Made by a program: the position numbers and the translations under genes
Notes under the pieces: generated by a model
The model's database searches: none
What the model was told of the DNA's origin: nothing
The model's input: only the letters and a program-made list of their open reading frames with translations
Assembly: GCA_010405405.1 (NCBI GenBank)
Contig: MU004233.1
Location: forward strand, 2,768,539 to 2,832,538
Direction of reading: 5' to 3'
Length of the DNA stretch: 64,000 nucleotides
Source: Microthyrium microscopicum
Taxonomy: Eukaryota
Shown here: positions 2,381-52,375 of the stretch, one piece after another
Position numbering within the stretch: the stretch's first letter is position 1
How the letters are laid out: the number at the start of each line of letters is the position of its first letter

Positions 2381-3076
2381 TCAATCCTCATCCCAAGTGC
2401 AATGTAGCTTGCCATCGATTCTAAAGAAACGAGGAGGCCCTGGACTGAGATCTTTGACCCTCCCCAAAGATCGCAGATCTTCAATCGCATTGCCAACAGG
2501 ATTACCAGTGCTTGCATGCCTCGCCGTACTCGCCGTAGTTTTCTTCCAGGCATCATAAGTTTTCGGCAGCGGAGCCTTGTAAGGCTGATCCATCGTCCTA
2601 TTCCTGAGCACCGCCGAATTGCTATCACACTCATTTTTCACATAAACCCCTTTCAAAGTCTCGTAGGCTGTTTCAATTGTCAGCTCACTCTAGCCAAGTA
2701 CACATTTGGCTCAAGGTAGGAAATCACCAGCCTCCACATACTCTCCGGTCGTTTGACTCGAAGTTCCAATTCTTTCAATCCTGGCCCCGGGAGCCAGTGG
2801 GCGATTCTCGGTGGGCGTTGCATGGGGCGTCAGATTCCATAAATGCCGCTTGCCTTCTACATGCACGTCACTTCTACGAGTGCTGACATGCCTGCCATGA
2901 GTGTCGTTTTTGGGGAACCAAGGCATGTCTTCTTCCACATTTGATACAGGAAGAGGCGCTCGCTTCGCGTTTCTCTCAGGAATACCGAGTTGTTCAAGAA
3001 GAGCGTTTTGACGTGTAGTTGCATCGGCATCTTTCTTGGTAGAATTGGACGACGAAGAGCGAAACCAACCCATCAT
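2381..3076 (-). CDS. Hypothetical protein, exon structure uncertain
   Basis: Two adjacent minus-strand ORFs (121 and 91 aa) flank a GTATGT..GCTGAC..CAG intron (about 2668-2741). The frames join cleanly only from an ATG at 2823, so the start is unresolved. Confidence 0.35.
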
Positions 3077-4179
3077 GTAAGAAATTGGAGCAATGGAACT
3101 CGTGTGAGGCTGTGATGAGTGATCTGTTACTGTAGGAAGTAGGGTGTATGATCTTGAACGATGTTGAGGGCGTCGAATTTATAGACTTGGATACGAAGTC
3201 ACAAAGTGAGGCTACCAATAAGAAGGATTTGAGGAATCAATTTTTTGGGCAGCTGACCGAGCTTCGCGCCTTATTCCATAACATCGTCGCAGTGAGTCGC
3301 TGCTTTCGGCGTAGATTAGCAGCAGGCCGAGAAGTTTGCTGGTTCCACACAGAAGTCAGATTCAGTAGCTCATGCTATCGTAATATCACTAACAATATCA
3401 AGAATCACTAAAGAGATCCAAGAACAATCTAGCAGTAATCCTAGGAAGAGACAGGTTGTCTGAGAAATTGGTGGGAAGACTTTCCTTTCCATCAGGCTGA
3501 AAGTGCAGGGGTAGCGCTTTCGCGTAGAGTGAACGGCTGGACAGAAGGGAAGCTCACGCGGCTGCCAGGTTATAGGATGACGCGCGTGCAGGATCCTTAA
3601 CGTAGACCGTAAATATAGATTATGACTTTCAAGCCAAAGATGATCTTGAAGTAAAGGCTAAGGAACGAAAGAGGTCGCTGGATCTAAGGCGTAGGCAGCA
3701 CAACAAGGGCAGGACGAATTGACAGAGACCTCACTGCAGATGGAACGGTGAATTATTTCAGTAACTTCATTCCCAATCTATCGAACTATGGAGTATTCGC
3801 AATGATTCATTCATGAATCGTTCAACATTCAGGGCCATAACCAGGGCAAGCAAAGGCAAATATACCATGACCTCAACATCAAGAGACTGACGCAGTGGTT
3901 TATAGCAAACCAGGACAGTAAGTGATGAAGATAACCACGGAAAAGCCACCAAGCCACAACACGCAACAACAATAATTTTTGCAAGAGAAGATCGAGTAGA
4001 CTCGATAGCAAGCTTGCCTCGAATGCTGAAGAACCGCCCATTCATGAAAATAATCCAAGAAGAAGCTGATCGAAAGCAAACCAAATCCACCGAAACACAC
4101 AGCAGAGACAAACTCATTCAACGAGAAAAGAATGAGCAGAATCAATCAAGACCTTCGAAGACGATGGCCAAGAAGTCGC

Positions 4180-8230: not shown

Positions 8231-10102
8231 ATGTTGTTGCATCGCGCTCTTCTTGCTGCTGCATATACCCCTTTCACCCAGGCCCTGCTTGGCCAATTCT
8301 CATCCCCTGGACGTCTAGTAGGAAGCTCCTTTGGCATTCCAACTCTAAATGCCACCTACGATTACATCGTCATAGGAGGCGGTCTTGCCGGCAACGTTGT
8401 AGCAGGAAGATTGACCGAAAAGTCAAATGCCTCAGTTGCAATTGTAGAAGCAGGAAATTTCTACGAGCTCAACAACGGAAATTGGAGCCAGATACCCTAT
8501 TACTCAGAGCAATGGGCAGGCTCCGAACAAGATGACTACAATCCACTCGTGGACTGGGGTTTGGAAACTGTCCCTCAAGTCAGTGGAGATATCATCCATT
8601 ATGCTCAGGGAAAGAATTTGGGTGGATCGTCGGGACGGAACCAGATGCTTTACCATCGCGCGACCAAGGGCTACTACCAGGCTTGGGCCGACCACGTAGG
8701 AGATAATAGCTATACTTGGGAGAACATGACAACGTATCTTGAGCGGAGCATGACTTTCACGCCGCCACGGCCAACAGCGCAAAACGTCAATGCTACGACG
8801 TCGTATGATGCCTCAGCTTTCTTGCCCACCAGCAATTCAAGTAATCCATTGCAAGTCAGCTATCCATCTTTCGTCCAAGAACTATCAGCATATGGGCCAG
8901 ATGCATTCCGGAGTATTGGGCTAGAAGAACAAGCAGGCTTTAGCAGCGGAGTGCTTCATGGCTTTGGCACATGGACATCCACCATTGACCCCACCACTGG
9001 GACGCGCTCTTCATCCGAGGCATCATTCTTGCAAGAAGCGTTCGGACGAGAACAGCTGACAGTCTATGTCAATACCAAGGCCCAAAATATCATCTTTGAC
9101 GCCAACAAGACTGCAATCGCTGTCAACGTTACGAGCAGCAGTAGCGCAAGCGATGCCCTATATTACACTCTTTCAGCGCGGAAGGGCATTTTACTAGCCG
9201 CTGGAGCATATCACTCGCCTCAAATCCTCATGCTTAGTGGCATTGGTCCAAAAGCTACGCTAAACCAATTTTCAATACCGATTGTCTCTGCACTGGAAGG
9301 TGTAGGCCAGAACATGTGGGACACGACAAATATCGGCGGAATCGTCTACAACATTAGCACGTCTATTACAACCTTTTCCGATTACGAAACTAATGCGACA
9401 CTGTTTGCTGAAGCAGAGCAGCAATTCCTGTCTGCCGGCACTGGTCCATTGACCAACATTGGGGAAGATTTTGTTGGATGGTACAAAATTGGTGATAATG
9501 TGACTTCTGAATTCTCAAACGCTACTCAAGCATGGCTTGCATCACTGCCGTCCGACTGGCCAGAGCTAGAACTCAGTCTGGCCAGCTCTTCGCGGTCATT
9601 GGAAGTTACGAATGACGAGACAAAAGTGGGCAGCCTCAACTGCTTGATGGTTGGAACCGCTGGACGAGGAAACATGACCATACAAAGCGCCTCTATATTC
9701 GACAAGCCAGTAATTGATCCAAATTGGCTACGTGACCCCAGGGATCAAGAAGTTGCAGTTGCAGCATTCAAACTGGCCCGAAAAGCATGGCAAGGCGTCC
9801 CTCCTGGGGTCATTGTTGGTGATGAAGTTTTTCCTGGGAAGAATGTCACGAGCGATGCGGATCTACTTGAAGCCATCAAGGGGAACATTGCCGCAATCCA
9901 CCATGCAAGTGCAAGCTGTGCTATGGGAAAGGTTGGTGATCCGACAGCAGTAGTTGACAGTAAAGGAAGGGTCATTGGTGTGCAAGGGTTGATGGTTGTG
10001 GATTCGAGTTCGTTGCCTTTCACGAATCCGGGGCATACGCAAGGAACTACCTATGGACATGCGGAGAAGATGGCTCAAATTGTGCTCGATTCCATGTTTT
10101 AG
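8231..10102 (+). CDS. Secreted GMC oxidoreductase (CAZy AA3), 623 aa
   Basis: Signal peptide, FAD-binding YDYIVIGGGLAG, GKNLGGSS, SPQILMLSGIGP, GVGQNMWD, and C-terminal HHASASCAMG..VVDSKGRVIGV..VVDSS..GH. Intronless. Confidence 0.95.
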   Translation: MLLHRALLAAAYTPFTQALLGQFSSPGRLVGSSFGIPTLNATYDYIVIGGGLAGNVVAGRLTEKSNASVAIVEAGNFYELNNGNWSQIPYYSEQWAGSEQDDYNPLVDWGLETVPQVSGDIIHYAQGKNLGGSSGRNQMLYHRATKGYYQAWADHVGDNSYTWENMTTYLERSMTFTPPRPTAQNVNATTSYDASAFLPTSNSSNPLQVSYPSFVQELSAYGPDAFRSIGLEEQAGFSSGVLHGFGTWTSTIDPTTGTRSSSEASFLQEAFGREQLTVYVNTKAQNIIFDANKTAIAVNVTSSSSASDALYYTLSARKGILLAAGAYHSPQILMLSGIGPKATLNQFSIPIVSALEGVGQNMWDTTNIGGIVYNISTSITTFSDYETNATLFAEAEQQFLSAGTGPLTNIGEDFVGWYKIGDNVTSEFSNATQAWLASLPSDWPELELSLASSSRSLEVTNDETKVGSLNCLMVGTAGRGNMTIQSASIFDKPVIDPNWLRDPRDQEVAVAAFKLARKAWQGVPPGVIVGDEVFPGKNVTSDADLLEAIKGNIAAIHHASASCAMGKVGDPTAVVDSKGRVIGVQGLMVVDSSSLPFTNPGHTQGTTYGHAEKMAQIVLDSMF

Positions 10103-39177: not shown

Positions 39178-41299
39178 ATCTGCTTCGGTCTTTCGATGTG
39201 ATTGGGAATGGATGGTTGAAGTAAGCTGGCCGGATGGTCTTTGATTCTTTCCGTCACTTGATGAGAGATTAAACCAGCATTGTGATTAAAAGTATAAGAA
39301 GTCGGAAAGAACAAAGGCACTAATACTTTAGGCCAATAATAGCCAGGTCAAAAAGATTCCGGAGATCCGAGCCGCGAGGTAGTTGGGATAGCCCTGTACA
39401 GTGGTAATACTCGGGTCGACTTGGAAATACAAGAAACAGCAGGAAACAACATCCGCAGATGAAAAAGAATAGAAAAAAGAGAAGGGACAGCCAGAAAAGG
39501 GTGGTTATGCGGGGAGGAGCAATGGACACGGCTTATGTTCCAATGCGTTGCGTTGGCAGTATCCTTGGAGGACAAGGCAGCATGTCAAGAAGCGGTTTCC
39601 GCCGAGGCTTTCCACTTCTACTACTTACCGGTCCTGTACCTTTATTATTCGAAGCCCTGCAGCCGTTTAGCCCATCCTTGAATAGTAGATGTGGGAGAAG
39701 TCTCCTAGAAAGCGGGACTTTTTCATGCATCGGTGTCGGAACTGGCCAACGAACGTGCAATCCAACAGAGTGGCTGGCCAGTGGAGCTTCGTGGCACCAC
39801 TCCAAGCCTCCCGAAATCCATTGGATACTTTACCTGCGGAATAGAATTTTTGCGCAACAGTTTGCCTGCACAAGACTGCCTTTGGAGCCATGTGGAGGCC
39901 CAACGTCGAGACTCGAAGCCGTGGGGAGTACTGCGTTGTCGATGGGCACTATCAACCTTGATGCCGATGGGAATCATGACTGAAGTGTAAGAAAGATACA
40001 GGTAGTGCCCAAATGTCGACTGCGAAAGAACAAATTCAAGCAGCGAGAGTCTCCTATTCGACAACTTTAAGGAGTCGAGAAGAGTCAACGCCACGAGGTC
40101 CGTGACCTGCTCTCATTTTCGCCAACTTCATCGCTTCACAACCTTTGAACCTACGTTGTGCACATCGAGCCGCCATCAGCCGTGGAAGGTCTATGCTTCT
40201 AGAACTTTTGCCTCATTTTCTTCCCTGTCTAGAACCTAGAGGCTAGGCCAGACGCGTACATGAATTGCGATGTCTCCTATCGACTACACTCTCGTATTGG
40301 GTGCTCAATTTCCCATAGAGGGCGTTTGATACCTAACGGTTCATCAAACGCCATGAGAATTCAGACGCTCTATAAACAGTGCGACCGATAGCAGACATCG
40401 ACTTGTGGAAGCACATCAGTCATTTTGTCCATTGGTCGGGCCATGCGCGTATTGTGAACAAGCCTCCCAGATCCATAACCATGCAAATCACAAGACGACA
40501 AGTGATGCTACTCTAGGTAACTGCCCTTTTCAACCTTGCGTTCCCCAAAGTATATATCGATCTCCCATTTTACCCTTTCACGATACCTTGTTCCGAGGTA
40601 TCAATAGATAAGCCGACCAGGATATTGTACAACCTCGGGGGCCTTCCTGGTCTATTTTCAACCGTTACTTCCGTCCTGTCGCAACATCTTGTGGAAACTG
40701 CATTGAGTTCTCCTTACCAAAAGATGTTGTCGATGAAATTGTCCGGTCACGGCTATCAACCCAAGGCCGAGCTGCTGGATGGCATCGATCACTGCTGCGT
40801 CAAGAACACGGATCATCCTAGGCCATCATGTTCAAAGCTGCAAGAGGACGGGTGTTTCGCCTGGATTCCCCACAGTGATCTGCTTCACTTCCGCCTTGGA
40901 TGGTAGTCTGTCAGTGCAGACTTTCAACGAATATCCTTCATTCTCGCATCCACCTTCGGGTCCTGAACAGCCACAATTGAAGCATCATTTCCGATTACCT
41001 GGAATGGCAGTTCGGGTTCAGAGATCCATTACTTTCGGCCTAAAAACTCCGAATATGGAAGAAAATTGCTCACTGTACTGTCCCATTTGCGCGCTTTGGA
41101 CTACAATACTAGTGTGCAGTGTCTAACTTACTGCACTTCTAATTCGGTACGTCGAGGCCAATACCAAGCTTCGCCCACGCTTCGACGACTTGAAGCCTCC
41201 AATTAACGCTTAAGGAATCTGGTCAGATGTCGCGGAGGCGAACCAATTATGGAGCACTGTTAGATGGATATCAGATTAATGCACTACTTGTACGATCAG

Positions 41300-41451
41300 T
41301 GTTGTGATGAAGAACATGCCAAGGGATTAGATAATCGCAAGACCTAATTAGAGATAACATAATCCCCTAATTAGCGTGTCCTAAAAACTATATTAGGCCC
41401 TTAGACTCTTATAGTAATTAACTACGCTTTATTTCTTATATTCTTATAATA
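41300..41451 (+). repeat. 5' LTR
   Basis: Aligns without gaps to 51087-51238. About 19 differences by manual count, all transitions. Confidence 0.95.
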
Positions 41452-43827
41452 TCTAGTAGTAATAATTTAATTTAATTAGGACCTCTAAATAACAAACCTT
41501 TTATAAGAATCCTTAAATTTACTTTATTATTAATAATTACTTAGGATTAATATTTAGCAAGATATACTCTAAGAATACTATTCTTTAATTAGCTAGCCTT
41601 ATTATAGCCTAATACCTAGTAATTATATATTAGGAAATAATTCTTAAGATTTATATATAATAATATTCCTTACTACTATATATCCTAAAAATATTTTAAA
41701 TTATCTTTAATTTAAACTACTACTTTAAGAATTATTAAATATATTATAAGAATTATTTCTTCTATAATAATACCCTCTTTATCCTTACTAACTTTTACTA
41801 TATTAATTACGTAGCTATTAAACAAAATATAAGAACTTCTCCTTAGAAAATTCCTTAGAATAACGTTATAAAAACTTTACTATACGAATTAAAGCTAATA
41901 AGTAATAATATAGACTCTTAGCCTTAGGTTATCTTAGGAAATTAGATTAAGATTTTATCTATACTAAAGAAGTATAAAAATTTGCCTTAGAATAATCTTC
42001 TAACTCTAGATTTTATCTAACTAACTTTAGTATAGAAACTTCTAAACCTTAAAACTTTTTCTCTACCTTATTAAGATTATATCCTTTATTAAAACTATTA
42101 CTTCTTTTTACTAAAATAAATAACTAGTATAATAATATTATAGCTTAAGCTATAAGATAAGATACCTAGTAGGTATAATATTAAGCCTAGGTTACTAACC
42201 TAAGTCCTTAAAATAAGTAACTTACTTCTATATTACTAAATAACCTTTTTAGCGTATTAAATCCTAGTCCTAACCTTATAACTTAGGTTACTAACGTTTA
42301 ATAATTAGGACTCTAAGCTCTAAACTATTTTATTAATATATATTAAGTTAATTCCTAGATTATTAACTATTCTTCTACTAAACTATAAACTTCCTCCTAA
42401 GCTTAGAACTATATTCCTAAAGGACCTAACTACATTCCCTAGGCCTATAACTAAACTTTCTAACGTAATAATAATAAAAATTAGTAGTTTATAAATAAGC
42501 TTATTCTTCTTTAAGGAATATTATTTTACTCTACTACTAATAAGTAAATTAAATAAGATTATAGCTCTAAACTTATAAAGAATATCTAATATACTTAGTA
42601 GTAGGAAATAGTAAATTATATTACTAAATTAATCTTTTACCTTAACGTAAGTAAGTTTATTCTACGTACTTAAGATTACTAGGTAAATAAAATTAAGGCT
42701 TATACTTAGACTTAAGCTTTAACCTAGGAAACTTTACAAATAAGTATTACTTACCTAAACCTTATAGAAAAGCTAAGTAAAGAGTTAGATAAGACTATTA
42801 AATTACTCTTCTAAACTTTTAGTCCTTAAAAACTTATTAAAATAATAAGAAATATTCCTTAGGAATAGAGATAATATTTAACTAAGTTTAAAATACCTCT
42901 TAATAGTTTATTCTCTAAGAAACTAAGTAAGTATAATACCTAAGCTAAGAGCTTCTTTTATACCTTTAAGGCTAGTAAAGATATTCTTTTATTAAATTTT
43001 ACTCTACCTAAGTAATAGAAAATTACTAAGATTAGAGAATATCTCCTTATTAAGTAATATCTCTTATAAGCTAACTTAGCCTAGTAATAAGTTATAGAAG
43101 AGTTTAAGATACTTAAAAGTTTATCTTATTTCTTTATCTACTTTTAATCTATATTTAGTATTAAAAAAGATATACTTAAGGTTAGTATCTAGTAGGATTA
43201 TATATTATAGGTTTTATCTACTAAGGAATTTATTTATTATCTTTATATCTTATAGACTTAAATAAATCCTATATCTACTAATTATAAAATAAGTATCTAA
43301 ATCTAAGAAGACTTTAAAGAATAAGTTACTTTTAAAGCTAAGCGTAGATATAGTACTATTCCTAACCCTATAGTTAATATTTTAGCCTTTAAATAAGAAA
43401 TTATTAAATATAATATAAACTTCTATAAAAATATATATAATACTTATAATACTTATAGGCTAGAGTAGCTTAATAAAATCTCCTCTAATTTTAAGAAAAA
43501 TAAAGAGCCTACTCTAAATACTAGTTTTAAGAAATATCTTAAGAAAGTTAATAATAAAAGCTATACTAATAATAAGCTTAAGTTAAATAATAAAAATTTA
43601 AAGTAGCTTAACGCTATAAATAGCTATAGTTACTATTCTAAAGAATAACGTAATACTTAATACTCTAGGAAATTTAACTCTAATAAGAAATTATATTCTT
43701 TTTATAAAAAAAACTCTAAAGGTAAAAAAGCTCTTATAGATAACTCTAAACTTAAGTACTAGAATTATAGTAAACTTAGCTACTACGCTATAAATTATAA
43801 AAAGCCTAACTAGTAATAATAGAGTTT

Positions 43828-46800
43828 AAAAAACTACTATTACTAGAAAATAAATAGGAATCTTTTAGCTTAGAACTAGAATACTTTATTTATCTATATA
43901 ATAACTAATAAGCTTTCTTTAACTATATAAGTAGATATAGTAATACTCTTTTACGTCTATCTATTTACTTATATTATAAAAATTATTTTATTAAAACTAT
44001 AGCTCTTCTAGACTTAGGAGCTAATTCTATTTATATTAGTTAAAAAATTATTAGAAAACTTAAAGCTTCTATAATATCTATCTTAAAGAAAGAAGTTACT
44101 CTTATAGATAGCTATATAGTTATAACTTCTTTTAGAATTTACTTACCCTATTATATTAAGACTTTTTATAGCTACTTTAAGGCTTATATTCTAAATATCC
44201 TTAATCTTAATATTATTTTTAGACTCTTATAGTTCTAGTTATATAATCTATAGATTAATTAGATAATAGAATAAATTAAGCTTATAAAGTAACGCTTAAG
44301 AGGCCTTTATACTTATAAGCTTACTATAGAATACTAGGTAGAGCCTCTTTAGAATAAGGAAAGCTACTTAGAATAAATAGAGTAGTTTATAATTAGCTCT
44401 CTTTATATAATTTTTTAAGTATTTTAAAATAAAGTAAAAAGAGTAAGAGACAAAGTTAAGAGTATTCTTTAGCTAATTTAAGAAATATAGAAATAGCCTA
44501 ATATCTTTTTAATAATTAATAACCTTAATATTAATAAACTTACTCTAGAAGATAAAGGTATATAGAAACTTTTAAATAATTACTATAGATTCTTTTGTTA
44601 TACTTTTCTTAAATTCTTACTATACTCTAAATTTAATTATAAAATCCTTATAGAGAACGCCTCTTCTTATAACTAAGCTTATTATTAAATATCTAACTTA
44701 TAACTAAAAGAGTAGAAAAAGTAGATTTAAGAACTACTTACTAAAGGACTTATTAGAGTCTTAAGAAGTCTTTAAGGTTTTTCTATCTTATTTATACTAA
44801 AGCTAGGAGGAAAATAGAGAATATATATTAACTACTATTTACTTAATATAGTTATACGTAAGGATACTTATTCCTTACTATAAATTAATAAGTATTTTAA
44901 TACTATTAGTAGAGTAAGATTCTTCTCTAAGCTTAACCTTCTATTAGGCTATTAATAAGTCTATATAATAGAAAAAGATATTAAGAAAATAGCCTTTAAT
45001 ACTAGGTCTAGAAAGTATAAGTTCCTTATTATACTTTTTAGATTAATAAATATACTATTATTTTTTTAGTATATAATAAATACTCTTCTTTAGCTCTTTT
45101 TATTAATTTACGTAGTTATTTACTTAAATAATATTATTATTTACTTAAATACTATAAAAGAATATTATAAGCATATTACCTAGGTTCTAAAAATCTTTTA
45201 AAATAATAAGCTTTATACTTATCCTAATAAATACGTCTTTAAGGTTAAGAAAATTAAATTCTATAGCTATAAAGTAAAAGGTTAGTAAATCTAACCCTTA
45301 CGCGAAAAAACTACCTTAATTAAGTTCTAGCCTATACTTAAGAATATATATAAAGTACGTTAATTTCTTAATTTTGCCTTATACTATTAATAGTATATTA
45401 AAAACTTTACTAAAATTACTATTTTTATCTTTAACTTCTTAAAGAAGGCTAATCTAAATATTAGGAAAAAAAAGTACTACTCTATTACTTAGACTTATTA
45501 ATATATTATAGCCTTTAATAAAATTAAGACTCTATTAACCTTATTACCTATCTTAGTAGTATATAATTTATAAAAGCCTATAAAACTCTAGATAAATACT
45601 TTAGATTATATAATTAGTTATAAGCTAGTATAAAAAAACAACTAGGGCAAATAATACTTAGTTACTTTTAATAGCTATAAACTAAGTAGAGCTAAACTTA
45701 ATTATCTAATATATAAGAAAGAGCTTCTTATAATTAAGAATATAATTAAGAGATACTAATACTACTTTCTAAGAAAAACTACTAAAGTAATTATAAATTA
45801 TAATAGCTTATAGTATATAAATATAATTAAGAATAATACTTAATATATTATTTAATAAATTAAAGAGTTTTAAAAATTTAATCTTATCTTTACGTATTAT
45901 AAAGATTCTTAAATAGTAATTCTTAATACTCTTAGTTACTATTTAAACTTTTAAGAAGAATAAATTAATACTATTTAGGAAATAGAGCCTAAAAATAGTA
46001 ATAATAACTTATTTTTTAAGGCGTAAACTACTCTATTAAAACTCTTATAAGAGTAGAAAGAATAAGAAATCTTCTATATATAGGGCTTATAAAAAGCATT
46101 AGAAAAGAAAGATTATACTATTTTTACTAGCGTATAGAAGAGGCTCTAAAAAAGTATTCTTAATTATTTTTAGATTAACCTTAATAAAGATATTAAGAGG
46201 AAATATAGTTATCTATTTTTAAAAAAAAATTCTACTAAAGCTAAGATACTTACTAGTTTACTCTATATTTATTTTCTCTATTATTAAGACCTTATTAAGA
46301 AAGTATATAATTAGTATAGGTACTTATTATATATAAACTTTACTAATATTCTTAAATTAAAAGGTTAGTAGCTAAAAATAAAGAATAACTTTTAGGAATT
46401 TATCTAGTTCTATTCTATATATTAAGTTTAATAAATAGATTAAAGTAAGCCTAAGTATAGGTCCTACTATTAAGTATAAAACTTATAGCTATTTAAGGCT
46501 TAGAGAATTAACCTAATTAGTAAACTTTTATAAAGTCTCCTTAAGAACTAGTATATTATCTATATAATTAACTATACTATAAGATAGCCTATTATAAAAT
46601 TAGTACTAAATATTACTACTTTTATAATTATAGAATTTATCTATAGGAAAATTATCTTAAAATATAGTCCTTCTTAATTATTAACCTTAGATAATAGACC
46701 TTAGTTTATTTTAGATATAATTCTATCCTTATTATAATAGATAAAGACTAAGTACTACTTAATAGCTTTATATAATCTCTAGTCTAATAGAAAGATTAAG

Positions 46801-47300
46801 AGATTTAATAGCCTACTAGATATATTCTTAACTAAGTTCTTAGAAAGAAAACTTATAGCTAGTTAGGATTTATACCTAGATTAAGTAGTTTATGCTACTA
46901 AGATATAAGCTTATACTACGTTAGGAATATCTCTCTTTTTCCTTATCTATAGGAAAGATTCTAAAGACTTTAAAATAAACTAGGTAAAGGAAGATAAATA
47001 AGCTAAATTAACTAGTACTATACTTTCTATCTATATAATTATAAAAGATTACTTAAAAAAGATTAGAATTACTAGATAAGTCTATTATAATGCTTTATTA
47101 AAATAAGCTATAGCCTTAAACCTTATTAATAATAATATAATTTTAAAAGAGGACTTTATTATTAAGTTCTCTATAGGTTCTTATATACTTCTTAAAAACT
47201 TAAATAAAACTAAGTTTTAAGTAACGTAGTTTAGCCCTTATAAAGTCTTAAAAGTCTACTTTTTAAGAATATATACTCTTAAGATACTTAATAAAAAAGT
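43828..47300 (+). pseudogene. RIP-mutated pol (protease-RT-RNase H-integrase)
   Basis: Motifs at 44002, 45121, 46501, 46681, 46771 and 47221 all fall in one reading frame, interrupted by TAA/TAG codons consistent with RIP of CAA/CAG/TGG. The true 3' end is unclear. Confidence 0.88.
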
Positions 47301-48440
47301 GCTTAAAAACCTTATCTATAAGAATTACTTTATATAAATATATACGCAAAAAAAAAAAAAATACTATTACTAAAACTAGCTATACTTTAAGTATAAGTAA
47401 CTAAGTAAAGATAACTTTAAAAGTATCTTAAATAAAGAGCATAGAAGCAAAATAGATATATTTACTATAACTAAGAAAGATTAGCTTAATAGATTAAGAA
47501 ACCTTTTAATAGAGTTAATTAATATTAAGAAGTCTAGTATTAGAAAATATTACCTAAGTCTACCTACTATTCTTTTTAATTTTATAAGAAAAGTTTAGAA
47601 AGCTAAAGTAAGTATTTATAGATAATAAAAGAAATATTCTATAGTAACTATTTATAACTTAAGTAGTAACTTAAAAACTCTTATAGTATTAAAATATATT
47701 CCTCTTAACTTAATTCTAGCTTTAGCGTAAAGTAATCTAAAATAAATAAAGTAAATTATATAAGAAGTAGAATATTCTATAATACTATAAAATCTAATAA
47801 GAGAAAAGAATAATAATATTCTTATCTCCTTAAATTAAAGCTTAGTAAGGAAGGAAATCCTTCTAGCTATAATAGATTAAGAATTAATTTTTATATTACT
47901 AAAATAATAAGAGTAAAAAGATAAATTGTTAAGACTAAGAAGCTATAATAAAATTGCTACCTTAATTACCTATACGTCTATACTAGAGGTAATAAATCTA
48001 TATAAATAAGTATCTAATCCTAGAAAGGACTATTAGGGTATTAACCCTTTATTACTAAATACTATAGAAGTAGAGATTTTTCTTATAAATTACCTTAAAC
48101 CTAGTCTACTATAAAAAATAGATATAACTAAAAGATTCTTATAGGATACTAATATATTTAGGCTAACTATAATGCTTAGTAGTTTTATATGTCCTAATAC
48201 TAATTTATAATATTTAGAATTAGGATAGAGATAATAGAAGGCTACTTCTAGATAAGAAATTATTCTATATATAAATATAGGTAAGATATCTATAAGAAAG
48301 AAAAGAAAAATTAACCTTTTATTATCTCTTTTATAACCTTTCTTAATTATATTCGTTTAAGGAAACTATTTATAAGAAATTACTTTTATTTATTATTAAT
48401 TTAAGTAAACTATTATAAGTAATAATAACTAAAATTAAAC

Positions 48441-48540
48441 CTTTAAATCTTCTTAGTAATCTTTAAGACTATTACTAAGGTTATTTAAATATAATAAGCT
48501 ATCTCTAAATCTTCTTAGTAATCTCTAGGACTATTATTAA
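48441..48540. repeat. 38-bp imperfect direct repeat (2 copies) inside the retrotransposon
   Basis: ctttaaatcttcttagtaatctttaagactattactaa (48441-48478) versus ctctaaatcttcttagtaatctctaggactattattaa (48503-48540). Differences are transitions. Confidence 0.85.
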
Positions 48541-51074
48541 AAGCCTTTTTATAAAATATTTAATAGTAAGAAATAAGAAACCTAAATAATCTAAATTTTT
48601 AAGCTAATCTACTACTTTCTAGTTTTAAAGTAATATAAGCCTAATGCTACTTTTCTTTATTCCTTAAAAGATAACTAACTCTAAGAGTTTAATTCTATTT
48701 CTTCCTCTATATAAGTAAGCTAATATACTTCTTTTTTACTAAAACTAAATATAGTTAGTAAAGCTTCTAAATAACTTAAAAATAGCGTAGATAATAAGCT
48801 ACTAATAAAGCTATAAATAAGAGTAATAAGTAGTTTAGTAACTACCTATATTAATTATATAGTACCTACGCTTATTTTCTTTATTATAAATAAGTAATTT
48901 TATTTATTATTTAAGGTATAATTTATATAAGCCTTATTAAATATAAAATTATTCTTTATATTCTAAAAGACTATATAATTATACTAAGTAATAACTTCCT
49001 TATCTAAAAGCTTAAGTATATAGTAGCGTTTATATTTATTATAATACTAATTAAATTAGTAATCCTAAGTATAAGCTATAACTACTTATAGCTTATTACT
49101 ACTAGATAATAAGTTAGTTATTATTATAGTAGCTAGCTTAGTCTAAGTAAGACTATACTTAATATAGTACTTAAGCAATACTAAGATCTCTTAAGGAATT
49201 TTAACTTTTTAATTCTAAAGATTCTATAAGACTTAGATAAGCTTATTCTAAGTCTTTTTCTTATACGTTTATAGCTAGTAGTTTAAATAAATTAATTAAC
49301 TACCTACTATAGTATAAGCTATATTATTAAGTAAATACTTATAAGTCTACTTATTAAGCTTCTTTAAAAAAGCTAAATAATAACCTAAACTAAGCTTTAT
49401 CTTAATTTAAAGCTTAGGTAAGGTCTTATACGTACTACCTTACTTCTTTATAAACTAATATAATAACGTCTTTATTTTCTCCTTATTTAAAAACTTAATA
49501 TACTTTAGTTTATTCTTAAAAATATTTAAAAAGTTAGTTTTATTAACTATATACTTATACGCTTATAAAATATTATAAGTTTACTCTAGCTTAAGCGTTA
49601 TATAATAGTAGTAGCCTTAGCTACGCTCTTAATTAATAACTTAGTATAAGGTTATTTTAGAGTATACTAAGCTATTCTAAATATACTAGAGTATATTTTT
49701 TACTACTTAAACTTAAGAACGTATTATATTTTACTTTATATATATCTATATAGAATTAAGTAATATAATATTTAAGAAGTTATAGTCTAAACTAAAAATA
49801 TTAGTAATATAAGTACTAGATATTATAAATAGCTTAATCTTATTTTAATCTAAAAAACTTATTTCCTAAAGCTATTAAAGCGTTACCTATATTAAAGTAT
49901 TCTTCTTAGTAAAACCTATCTTTCGTTTAAGCGTCTCTTAAGTAGCTTACTTATAAGCTAACTTTTGCTAATAAAAGAACTTACTCTCTAGGACTAGAAG
50001 ATATTATTTAAACATAGGTAATTATTTATAAGATTATCTTATCTTAAAATTAACGTTATAGTAGCCTATAAAAGCTCGCTAGTAAGCCTCTTTAAGAAAA
50101 GGATTTAGATAGCTAATACTTTATTAATAACTAAATCTAGCTAAAAAAGACGAAAAGTAGTTATTATTATTCTTTATGCTTAAGAATTTTAATATACTAC
50201 TTTATTAGCTATAAGCTTTAGCTAGAGAAGATAAATATATAAGCGTATTTATAAATAATTATAGATATTCCTTAGAATAAGGTTAAGTAACTAAACTTAG
50301 AAACTAAATAATAAAACTTAAAGCTTACTATAAAGATTTAGCTTAATTATACTAAGCCTAAGAAACTTAAGAATAAGTACTATACTTTCTAAGTATCTTT
50401 AAAAGCAACGTAGTTAGCTTAGTATAAGAAGCTATCTTAAAAAGTTCTTATAATTAAAAGCTTAAGAAGAATTAAGGATTAAAGAAAGGGAATATATAGA
50501 GCTACTTATACTTAATAATATTAGAAGTATAAAAAAGAATTTACTTCTACTAGCTTAAAGTATTATAAAAGTATAATAAAGAAGAAGAAGAGAAAATAAT
50601 AGATTATAAAGCTTTATAGATATAAAATTAAGCCCTTATCTTATATTTACTTAGACTAGTAATTACTACCTAGTTCTTCGTTACTATCTATATATTACTT
50701 CTTATAAACTTTATTCTTTAAGGCCTTAAAGCGTAAGTTATATATATTCTTTATTAAATTAAGTAGCCTTAATACGTCTATATAAACTTCTTATAATTCC
50801 TTAATTTACTACTACTAATAGCTCTTATGTAAATAAACCTTCCTAAAAGGATTAGAAACTATAAATACTTAAGTACTATTTATAATAGTTTAACCTAAAT
50901 CTTAAAAAAGATCTTAAAGAGATAATTCCTTAGAGATTACCTTATAATATAGCTAGGGCAATAGTTCTAGACCCTAGGTAAAGATTCTTTATTAGTTATT
51001 ATAATATTCTTTTTATTTTACTTATTTATTAAAGCTATAACTATAGGATTTATAAACTTAGGAGAGTTTACGCT

Positions 51075-51086
51075 AGTAAGGAAGGA
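51075..51086 (+). other. Polypurine tract
   Basis: AGTAAGGAAGGA directly abuts the 3' LTR. Confidence 0.7.
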
Positions 51087-51238
51087 TATTATAATAAAGA
51101 ATATGCTAAGGAATTAGATAATTGTAAGACCTAATTAGGGATAATATAATCCCCTAATCAGCGTGTCCTAAAAACTATATTAGGCCCTTAGACTCCCGTA
51201 GTAATTAACCACGCTTTATTTCTCATATTCTTACAACA
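51087..51238 (+). repeat. 3' LTR
   Basis: Copy of 41300-41451, ending TTACAACA and followed by the ATCAG TSD. Confidence 0.95.
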
Positions 51239-52375
51239 ATCAGAAGTGCTCTGAAAGTACCCCGATAGCTGCATATTCATGCATTCCATAGCTCCTTTTC
51301 CATGTGACGATCGTTATGGACTGCACATATATCACCTGTCAGACGGTTATGGAAGTATCAAAGGCTCTGCGGCCACCTTTCTCGCCGTGAATCTCGCATG
51401 TTTATACCTCTGAGGTTAGATGATGGAGAAGTAAAGGTGGATGATGTGAAGGACTAGTCTCAACGCAGTAAGTGAGGCTCAATTGAAATATGGAGACGCA
51501 TGATCTTGGTTCACTATTCTTTCAAAGTACCATCAACACGTTGGGGTTCGAACTACTACACGCAGACATATTGACGACTTGAAGACTTCTGATTCTGAGT
51601 TTTCAATACCGCCTTCCGGTATTTGAGGAAACTCGTTGACCTTATGACCTCCAACTCAATGACGATGGTAAGGGTACTAGCTCTACACACATCTAGAATT
51701 CAAGCATCATCTCTACAAAGGCCACTAAAGACGCATGAGATCGATGAAATGGGAAGCTAGAAAACGCTATATATACCTCGGCCCGCGGGCAATACTGCAA
51801 TGCAGTGTATGAAAGACTATTGAAATAAAATCGTGTATTGAAATAAAGACTTTCTAGGTAGCTCGCAAAGACGTTATTATTCACGAATCAAGAAAAGTAA
51901 ACACACGCCAATAGCCGACTGATCTAAGATAAAACGAAGTACCCAGCTGTCCTGCTCAGTCATCCATACAAAGCAAACCATAAAAACATGAAGAGTGCGC
52001 CATCTTAGCTTCGAGATCAATTTCGGATATCATTACTGGAAGTTGTGAAGACTGATGACATTCGTCATTTCAAGCTTTTAGAAGTCGTTTCGTCCGATGT
52101 TCAATATCAAAATGTACTTAGTGTGTAGCTTGAGGTTTTCAAACTTGACTTTGTCTTTTGAAGTGATTCTGATGTGTGTTTATGAATTCTATATTGTCAG
52201 TTTATGTGGCTAAGCTATAGCCAGATATCAGAAAACGTCTCTTCCACGTGCTGATGCTAAATCCTTCACAAGAAGACAACATCTCTGTCCCATGTATAGA
52301 CTGCCCGTCACCCCATAGCCCCTGTATCTATCAAGCTCCAACAACCTCCATTAGAATTTAACTTCCATACGCTTC

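Follow-up and report, generated by a model that had tools for sequence, protein, structure and literature searches.

A RIP-inactivated Ty3/Gypsy family of Microthyrium microscopicum with an extended Pol and two alternative putative antisense genes between pol and the 3' LTR

Structure of the element and its copies

The window, a stretch of 64,000 nucleotides of the Microthyrium microscopicum genome, carries a Ty3/Gypsy element of 9939 bp (41300-51238), in agreement with a preliminary description of a 9.9-kb element with 152-bp long terminal repeats (LTRs). The 5' LTR (41300-41451) and the 3' LTR (51087-51238), both of 152 bp and on the plus strand, have TG...CA ends and differ by 19 transitions and no transversions. 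A target-site duplication (TSD), ATCAG, lies to the left of the element (41295-41299) and the identical five bases recur at 51239-51243; a 5-bp TSD was present in all ten full-length copies examined. The primer-binding site (41454-41465, plus strand) is a 12-base RIP-compatible match to the host tRNA-Met(CAT); among the 25 tRNA genes that were called, from 30 loci, the next best match is 9 bases long. The polypurine tract (51078-51086, plus strand) is all-purine in the 20 copies shown. The LTR ends, TSD, primer-binding site and polypurine tract are those of the Ty3/Gypsy elements (Metaviridae).

The genome contains at least 20 copies of this family (8 type A and 12 type B matches, as described below). 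The GC content of the element is about 0.20 versus 0.47 in its flanks, and the composite RIP index is 1.5-2.0; the family is now dead, killed by RIP, and every copy is broken.

Coding potential was scored per 100 nt with a model trained on RIP-simulated host genes and genes of other elements; the RIP model was fitted in this analysis, and the family copies are not independent of each other. The coding model recovered the known gag (14/14 copies) and pol (16/16) frames, plus one antisense frame in each type; single null pieces reached a score of +1.0, and the null DNA may contain small exons. Counting stop columns over all copies was uninformative as a coding test, RIP being saturated even in pol. 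The gag-like frame, interrupted by RIP stops, extends from approximately 42150 to 43750 on the plus strand (+1.21, 14 of 14 copies positive), with 7 of its 10 shared transversions in third codon positions; it is labelled gag by position and not by a family match. An A-run at 43707, which resembles a frameshift site, was found in the window copy alone.

Pol and its C-terminal extension

The pol core (44002-47240, plus strand) carries a protease-like motif, reverse transcriptase (RT), RNase H, integrase and a GPY/F-type motif, in a frame other than that of gag (coding score +0.91, 16/16 copies). RVT_1 and RT_RNaseH were detected in copy L034, and the integrase region matches P0005. RT-RNase H and then integrase match intact Gypsy Pol, giving the order PR-RT-RH-IN, in which the protease is a motif reading only. 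RT-RNase H is 26-32% identical to Tf2-type Pol proteins, and a word-seeded search with this region gave 23 matches of 22-32% identity, none of them close. The recognisable pol motifs had been described as ending at GPY near 47240, and the GPY/F-type motif was indeed located there, reading SPY near 47233.

The pol frame continues for about 365 codons beyond this motif (47240 to approximately 48333, plus strand), and this extension is common to both types. Its coding score is +1.20 in 47240-47570 (20/20 copies) and +0.37 in 47570-48330 (15/18 copies; null 95% level -0.09). Stop columns make up 7.5% of this frame versus 14-15% in the other plus frames, third positions hold 5 of 6 shared transversions, and 14 of 17 copies show no net indel. 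Read antisense, the same tail has a stop density of only 5.2% and shares its third positions with pol, but this reading was discarded on its coding score (-1.22, 0/18).

No Pfam family was found in the extension, either with single read-throughs or with alignments. The chromodomain that could not be read after the integrase in the preliminary description was not detectable here either: Pfam gave no chromodomain match in the family, and a list of 25 PF00385 matches from the genome did not contain it, though RIPed elements of other families were among them. A RIP-aware comparison with three intact chromodomains gave p values of 0.055-0.99, but its GPY/F positive control failed too. There was likewise no PF00692 match for a pol-encoded dUTPase in the family, and a RIP-aware test of limited power against the host enzyme gave p 0.22.

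Two antisense ORFs in one slot

About 3.85 kb separate the GPY/F-type motif from the 3' LTR, so the unexplained stretch noted earlier is real; it is family-wide and partly coding. It is not a nested unrelated transposable element, since its full length, or the greater part of it, is matched in 8 copies, and both of its ends recur in 12 others. A long pol extension and/or an extra gene had been proposed for it, and both hold: pol runs to about 48333 and is followed by an antisense gene, whose existence in two alternative versions had been missed.

The 3' ends of the two genes converge on a non-coding spacer (48334-48590), in which no frame scores positive and which holds a 61-bp direct duplication (48440-48500 and 48501-48561). 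A and B copies alike have the spacer; fixed differences separate the two types (15.9 transversions/kb, as against 0-1.8 inside a type), and type B shows a net change of -1 base. Beyond it lies the type A ORF (48600-50435, minus strand, 3' end approximate), about 610 codons if counted from the shared start context, in 8 copies; 12 copies carry type B instead, an antisense ORF of about 505 codons (positions 8828 to about 7300 of copy L035). The DNA of types A and B does not align, while the flanks on either side are shared. Both frames start at the cassette boundary within a short shared context, where copy L034 has an ATG. The upstream region (50436-51077, minus strand) is common to both types, with 1-base indels between them, and presumably represents the 5' UTR and promoter of the antisense ORF.

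The coding score is +0.50 for type A over 48590-49950 (8/8 copies; null 95% level -0.21) and +0.62 for type B (10/11 copies; null -0.13). The signal of type A is limited to 49950-48590; its first 160 codons have none in any frame (-1.43, 0/8 copies). The length of the gene is put at roughly 450-615 codons. The window copy has 66 stops in it, and the stop density of the A frame (11.2% versus 10.9-15.1% in the other frames) is not the lowest. The earlier remark that parts of 48600-49500 are pyrimidine-rich, as a minus-strand ORF could be, stands for the frame, which the coding model supports, and hardly for the excess, which is slight (purine share 0.45-0.49). Donor-like words occur at 50328, 50079, 49984 and 49950, but introns in type A are without support because there is no branch-like word between 50418 and 49538. 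In sequencing run X3 the depth over type A was below that over the shared parts.

By these statistics the slot that follows pol holds a long ORF running antisense to gag-pol, the evidence being statistical because every copy is broken. It is present in most or all copies, and the slot is empty in none among the copies listed.

Pfam searches with A, B and the pol tail, as single read-throughs and as alignments, gave no family (best E 0.057 and 4.8, from single members), and Transposase_28 (PF04195) was not matched, although RIP hides the integrase from Pfam too. An HMM search with type B against 1.84 billion representatives gave no matches, and neither did word-seeded protein searches with the integrase plus tail or with the A and B alignment; the sensitivity of the word-seeded search is low, because the known integrase domain was also unmatched. 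No viral contig contained the family protein or the LTR motif. In metagenomes the LTR motif was absent, and the primer-site motif occurred at 43 loci, none of which matched the family. The AlphaFold model of type B had a pLDDT of 29.6 and no usable fold.

Relationship of types A and B

In a RIP-aware comparison of A with B only one of 36 frame pairs scored, that of the two antisense frames (p 0.00012, the next being 0.06), and all 16 copy pairs gave p<0.01. The all-copy average was matched by one of 600 local shuffles, with p>=0.2 for the remaining 35 frame pairs. The score of 117 exceeds those of all 579 RIPed control pieces (maxima 84 and 92). The likeness is colinear over about 340-370 codons, at equal distance from the spacer, and survives reversal, local shuffles and three gap costs. 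Identical letters amount to about 22-25%, in part due to RIP composition. On this protein-level comparison, A and B are probably related, as very different versions of one gene within one family.

Support for the homology comes down to a score of 1 in 1000 for a pair chosen beforehand, because plain hhalign was weak (E 0.0076, probability 5%) and one of 741 un-RIPed pieces, a chance frame riddled with stops, reached 112 against B. A and B might instead be real but unrelated genes, one having replaced the other after capture or recombination from a host gene or a different element. The unalignable DNA, the unconvincing BLASTP and hhalign results, the RIP share of the identity and the chance piece fit such a replacement. 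It is nevertheless improbable, given that only the pre-chosen pair scores, colinearly, at the same spacer distance and robustly to shuffles and gap costs. The genome of M. microscopicum itself has no match to A or B outside the family, so that a captured host gene, suggested previously, finds no support. A and B were also set against the antisense ORFs that two other elements carry and against 1320 frame pieces taken from 20 further loci, and neither comparison gave a credible third homologue.

Cassette exchange and selection

Homologous versions A and B appear to have been exchanged on a common backbone. The gag-pol haplotypes defined by transversions are shuffled between A and B copies, A-B divergence in pol (2.6/kb) is the same as within types, TSDs accompany both types, and a mosaic sub-version of B occurs in 3 of 11 copies.

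Inside the antisense ORFs there are no shared frameshifts versus 23 shared transversions, whereas the flanks have 4-8 one-base indels versus 11 transversions (Fisher p 0.018 to 0.0006). Residue-replacing shared changes make up 11/23 in the antisense ORFs versus 3/24 in gag-pol (p 0.011), and third-position shared transversions 9/23 versus 19/24 (p 0.008), so that the ORFs are not conserved like gag-pol. The codon positions of the ORF transversions do not differ from neutral (p 0.35), and relaxed constraint therefore fits as well as diversifying selection.

This neutral spread is what a passenger gene, real but dispensable and with selection on it relaxed, would leave, A and B marking the neutral meeting of two old lineages that recombined, and the genome also holds an intact chromovirus that lacks such a gene. 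We regard a passenger as quite improbable too, since neither ORF has a shared frameshift while the flanks accumulate them, all 20 copies have A or B, and protein likeness has outlived DNA likeness.

Possible role of the antisense gene

We know of no established function for antisense accessory genes of LTR retrotransposons. The reading that we prefer is that of a tRNA-Met-primed fungal Ty3/Gypsy family with a long-tailed Pol and, between pol and the 3' LTR, a separate antisense gene for an accessory protein serving the element, to which we give a probability of roughly 60%. This gene would be transcribed from a promoter of its own close to the 3' LTR. A and B would be deeply diverged homologues, exchanged as a cassette within a single gag-pol pool; the likeliest mechanism would be a template switch, in the conserved flanks, between RNAs packaged together. 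The protein might act in trans for the spread of the element, in conflict with host control, which would account for a kept frame with fast amino-acid change. If the gene is real, an anti-silencing-like or RNA-handling role has somewhat less than an even chance. A fuller version, with two idiomorph-like homologous versions under balancing selection and a silencing arms race, and with an undescribed integrase tail of 250-365 residues, is rather unlikely.

The middle segment could also be non-coding, or a mere source of antisense RNA, with frame signals that are RIP artefacts; the scores are modest (+0.5 and +0.6 per 100 nt, against null pieces of up to +1.0) and the stop density of A is unremarkable. 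That is very improbable, as the coding model, the A-B protein likeness, the start context and the indel pattern independently single out one and the same pair of frames. Fungal incompatibility and spore-killer genes have allele classes resembling the A/B pattern, and two unalignable versions in one slot, in 8:12 copies and with a mosaic B sub-version in 3/11, could suggest a selfish poison-antidote or self/non-self specificity factor whose incompatible forms are held by balancing selection; this is more doubtful still, because no domain, motif or fold supports it and A and B coexist in one genome.

A coiled coil had previously been read in a plus-strand frame at 50221-50640. The quoted letters are there and appear heptad-like, and plus frames are weakly positive in some 240-300-base windows, but the score is within chance (-0.19, with 2/8 copies positive, against +0.48 for the 95th percentile of the best-of-six null), the frame crosses the A/B boundary near 50450, and in 50480-50640 eight of the nine covering type B copies differ from the window by net, frame-shifting, +1 or +2 bases. 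No plus-strand frame is supported after 48333, and the frames tested contain only marginal 19-residue hydrophobic windows (1.8-2.1, in RIP-biased letters) and no strong transmembrane segment. The env-like cargo suggested earlier is unlikely because the gene is antisense and these windows are marginal, and sense-strand cargo of either kind at 50221-50640 is scarcely credible.

If the accessory gene is as we propose, its two exchangeable, fast-evolving versions on one backbone would be a natural swap experiment, given intact relatives, and their comparison would test directly whether antisense accessory genes work against control by the host. The case also shows that purine/pyrimidine-based statistics suffice to locate and compare genes in RIP-saturated DNA, with no need to rebuild them. 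The value of the case is limited in that all copies are dead, the gene class has already been described and no protein family was found for A or B.

Comparison with known systems

Like the fungal chromoviruses (PMC3248453), the family has the Gypsy domain order, an intact example in the same genome being L051/L052; unlike them, it has no detected chromodomain, a long Pol tail and 2.7 kb of further 3' region. The likeness to VANC, the anti-silencing proteins of Arabidopsis VANDAL DNA transposons (PMC5735166), is that of a working model only, in which the element encodes an accessory protein that has diverged among related elements and has tandem repeats in its non-coding parts. VANDALs belong to another element class and kingdom, there is no sequence link, and the 61-bp repeat is common to A and B, not varying with the protein as in the VANC model.

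The plant aORF-3R elements, namely maize Grande with gene23, rice RIRE2 and Silene Retand with TRP28 (PMC7264820 and PMC11963269), share with this family a long region between pol and the 3' LTR, an antisense ORF in all copies, direct repeats in this region, an expected own promoter upstream and a function that is not established. The plant ORFs are described there as about as conserved as gag-pol, whereas here replacement changes are enriched and two versions are unalignable as DNA. TRP28 of Retand, or SMC, gave no match in A or B, with low power under RIP.

In Botrytis cinerea and Sclerotinia, Boty-like elements (BcGypsy1) carry the antisense gene brtn, for which the source paper is Zhao et al. 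2011 (PMID 21802103). Passages of PMC8365987, PMC4227169 and PMC7264820 describe, as here, a fungal Ty3/Gypsy element with a 5-bp TSD and an antisense gene in the interval from pol to the 3' LTR. According to the same passages Boty-like Pol ends in a chromodomain, whereas here none is detectable and a 365-codon tail is found instead; two alternative versions are not mentioned in them, and all copies of the present family are dead. The literature searched, mostly open papers, contained no description of a fungal family with two homologous antisense ORFs as alternatives. Figure S1 of PMC8365987, which deals with additional ORFs in Botrytis elements, may be relevant to this point. Accessory genes of this kind have been described before, but two alternative antisense versions within one family are unusual.

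Element structure and copies

The preliminary observation is partly confirmed and its interpretation partly supported: the analysis points to a Gypsy family, now dead, whose Pol has a long tail and whose antisense accessory gene comes in two forms. The window contains a complete LTR element (41300-51238) with 152-bp LTRs, the duplication ATCAG and a primer site at 41454, where a 12-base match to the host tRNA-Met, allowing for RIP, was the best among the 25 tRNA genes called. The element is saturated with RIP (GC about 0.20 versus 0.47 in the surroundings, CpA and TpG nearly gone), and its assignment to Ty3/Gypsy is based on a less damaged copy, L034, in which Pfam RT and RNase H domains are followed by an integrase-region match. 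The genome carries at least 20 copies of the family. At least eight (type A) align with the window across the questioned region between pol and the 3' LTR, and at least 12 (type B) align at 47200-48580 and 50460-51238 and differ in a 1.55-kb middle; since eight copies match through the segment and 12 share both its sides, a nested unrelated insertion is ruled out. A 5-bp duplication was found in all 10 full-length copies examined, and the LTR pairs differ by transitions only in all nine copies comparable without gaps (L042 was excluded because of an indel), indicating that both types were mobile shortly before RIP.

Contigs of run X5, from a different sample, span both insertion junctions (41000-41345 and 51164-51500), with the interior uncovered. 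Two family copies, L032 and L040, carry insertions of about 1.2 kb with tRNA-like matches (G000:C2:3112380-3112472 and C2:1419305-1419398), which are possibly tRNA-headed SINEs.

Coding frames and the pol extension

Because every copy has had its Gln and Trp codons made into stops by RIP, stops fixed across copies are uninformative, and the analysis relied on codon-phase structure, transversions and indels, which RIP is unable to generate. A third-order phased coding model, for which a RIP-simulated set of host genes and other elements' pol genes served as training data, recovered the controls gag (+1.21, 14/14 copies) and pol (+0.91, 16/16), and a second model, with the family's gag-pol as its training set, picked out identical frames. 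Upstream of gag, a plus frame at 41550-41950 was positive in the family-trained model; in the host-trained model, 41460-42150 scored -0.86, with 2 of 13 copies positive.

The preliminary description had proposed a long pol extension and/or an extra gene, and both found support. The pol frame remains the best one past the GPY/F motif, at +1.20 for 47240-47570 (20/20) and +0.37 for 47570-48330 (15/18), the null 95th percentile being -0.09 and other frames reaching -1.22 at most. Stop columns make up 7.5% of the tail versus 14-15% in the other plus frames, a net indel is absent in 14 of 17 copies, and five of six shared transversions fall at third positions (p 0.018), although one of the six, lying within an A-run, could reflect misalignment. 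A minus frame over the tail, with the same third positions and few stops (5.2%), was rejected by the coding model. Neither a dUTPase nor a chromodomain was detected in the tail, the chromodomain test being underpowered, as its GPY/F control failed as well.

Antisense ORFs

In each type, the coding model supports one antisense frame as the extra gene. In type A this is a minus-strand frame at 48590-49950 (+0.50 in 8/8 copies; null -0.21), and in type B a frame spanning the whole middle (+0.62 in 10 of the 11 copies, out of 12, that were fetched over this part; null -0.13). The spacer after pol, which contains a 61-bp duplication, has no positive frame. The starts of both frames coincide with the end of A-B DNA similarity, sharing a context of about a dozen bases, in which L034 has an ATG. 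Over the first 160 codons of A (50435-49950) none of the frames carries a coding signal and no intron is demonstrable; the start of ORF A may be further downstream, or its head may be atypical. The stop density of A is not distinctive by itself. A stretch at 49037-49131 is self-complementary (76% to its own reverse); palindromes arise readily in TA-rich RIPed DNA.

A plus-strand coiled coil had earlier been read at 50221-50640. The quoted letters are present, but the coding frame is unsupported (-0.19, 2/8, inside the null); as an ORF it spans the cassette boundary, and eight of nine type B copies have it shifted by +1 or +2 bases. It is the reverse side of the head of ORF A and the region upstream.

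Relationship of types A and B

Standard tools gave no convincing likeness between A and B. In a RIP-aware comparison, with a codon score matrix built by simulating RIP, a match is confined to the two antisense frames (p 0.00012; next best of 36 frame pairs 0.06; shadow frames p 0.04-0.77). All 16 copy pairs reached p<0.01, and the signal holds under reversal, local shuffles and three gap costs (p 0.0001-0.04). The score lies above all 579 RIPed control pieces, and when all 8 x 11 pairings of copies are averaged, one of 600 local shuffles reaches the result (other 35 frame pairs p>=0.2); the averaged match is colinear, spanning 224-596 in A and 161-500 in B. As a caution, a stop-riddled frame among 741 un-RIPed pieces reached 112 when compared with B, versus 117 for A x B, and purine/pyrimidine mismatches per codon position in the A-B alignment were the same as in shuffled controls. 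With a 1-in-1000 score for a pair pre-chosen by an independent test, these sequence comparisons make A and B probably homologous (probability about 0.85).

No identity emerged from Pfam, word-seeded protein searches, viral and metagenome scans or a search of 1.84 billion proteins with a type B HMM; AlphaFold gave no usable fold. These blank searches carry little weight, since even integrase was missed. No host copy of the antisense gene was found in the genome.

Cassette exchange and selection

Transversion haplotypes of gag-pol are intermixed between A and B copies, and pol divergence between the types (2.6 per kb) is the same as within them; differences between the types amount to 16 per kb in the spacer and 36 per kb in the stretch leading up to the PPT. 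Thus, the 3' block moves as a cassette, carried by a single backbone that recombines. A and B were most likely exchanged by the standard recombination route, template switching between RNAs packaged together.

The ORFs contain 23 shared transversions and no shared frameshifts, versus 11 transversions and 4-8 one-base indels in the flanks (p 0.018-0.0006). Third positions account for 9/23 transversions in the ORFs versus 19/24 in gag-pol (p 0.008), and obligatory residue replacements for 11/23 versus 3/24 (p 0.011), many B sites being non-independent as a single mosaic sub-version, present in three copies, contributes them. This sub-version (L035:8055-8321 coordinates; copies L040, L041 and L045) shows clustered transversions, several of them residue-replacing. 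Either diversifying or relaxed selection would account for a frame that is kept while its residues change freely; the codon-position spread of the ORF transversions is also as neutrality predicts (p 0.35). An arms race with host silencing, the A and B versions being kept by balancing selection, seems rather unlikely.

Comparison with other elements and known systems

Other elements were noted in the genome. A nearly un-RIPed Gypsy (L053/L054, G000:C6:2133902-2141488) with identical 162-bp LTRs has antisense ORFs after pol, one of them Cys-rich (L054:3318-3830, minus); Pfam had no match for these at E 0.01, and they resemble neither A nor B. An 8.5-kb element with light RIP (L055:1372-9901, G000:C5) has a GC-rich 3' region with ORFs opposite to pol (2076-2756 and 3060-3404), without Pfam matches. 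An apparently intact, un-RIPed chromovirus (L051/L052, G000:C2:1270095-1277759) lies within AT-rich DNA and has identical 226-bp LTRs, an open pol frame of 1443 residues and a chromodomain.

The plant elements Grande, RIRE2 and Retand are described as having antisense ORFs located between pol and the 3' LTR (PMC7264820, PMC11963269), and Botrytis Boty carries antisense brtn in this position (PMC8365987, PMC4227169, PMC7264820). These descriptions assign the antisense ORFs no function, but Grande gene23 has been shown to localise to the nucleus and to have a promoter of its own (PMC7264820, PMC11963269). No report of two alternative homologous antisense versions within one fungal family was found in the literature searched. 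A Boty-like assignment is not made, no chromodomain having been detected. Unlike the described class, the family in the window does not have an antisense ORF conserved equally to gag-pol. VANC (PMC5735166), as an accessory protein that diverges quickly, may serve as a works-like model and nothing beyond. In bearing an antisense ORF after pol, the element in the window would work like Grande, RIRE2, Retand and Boty.
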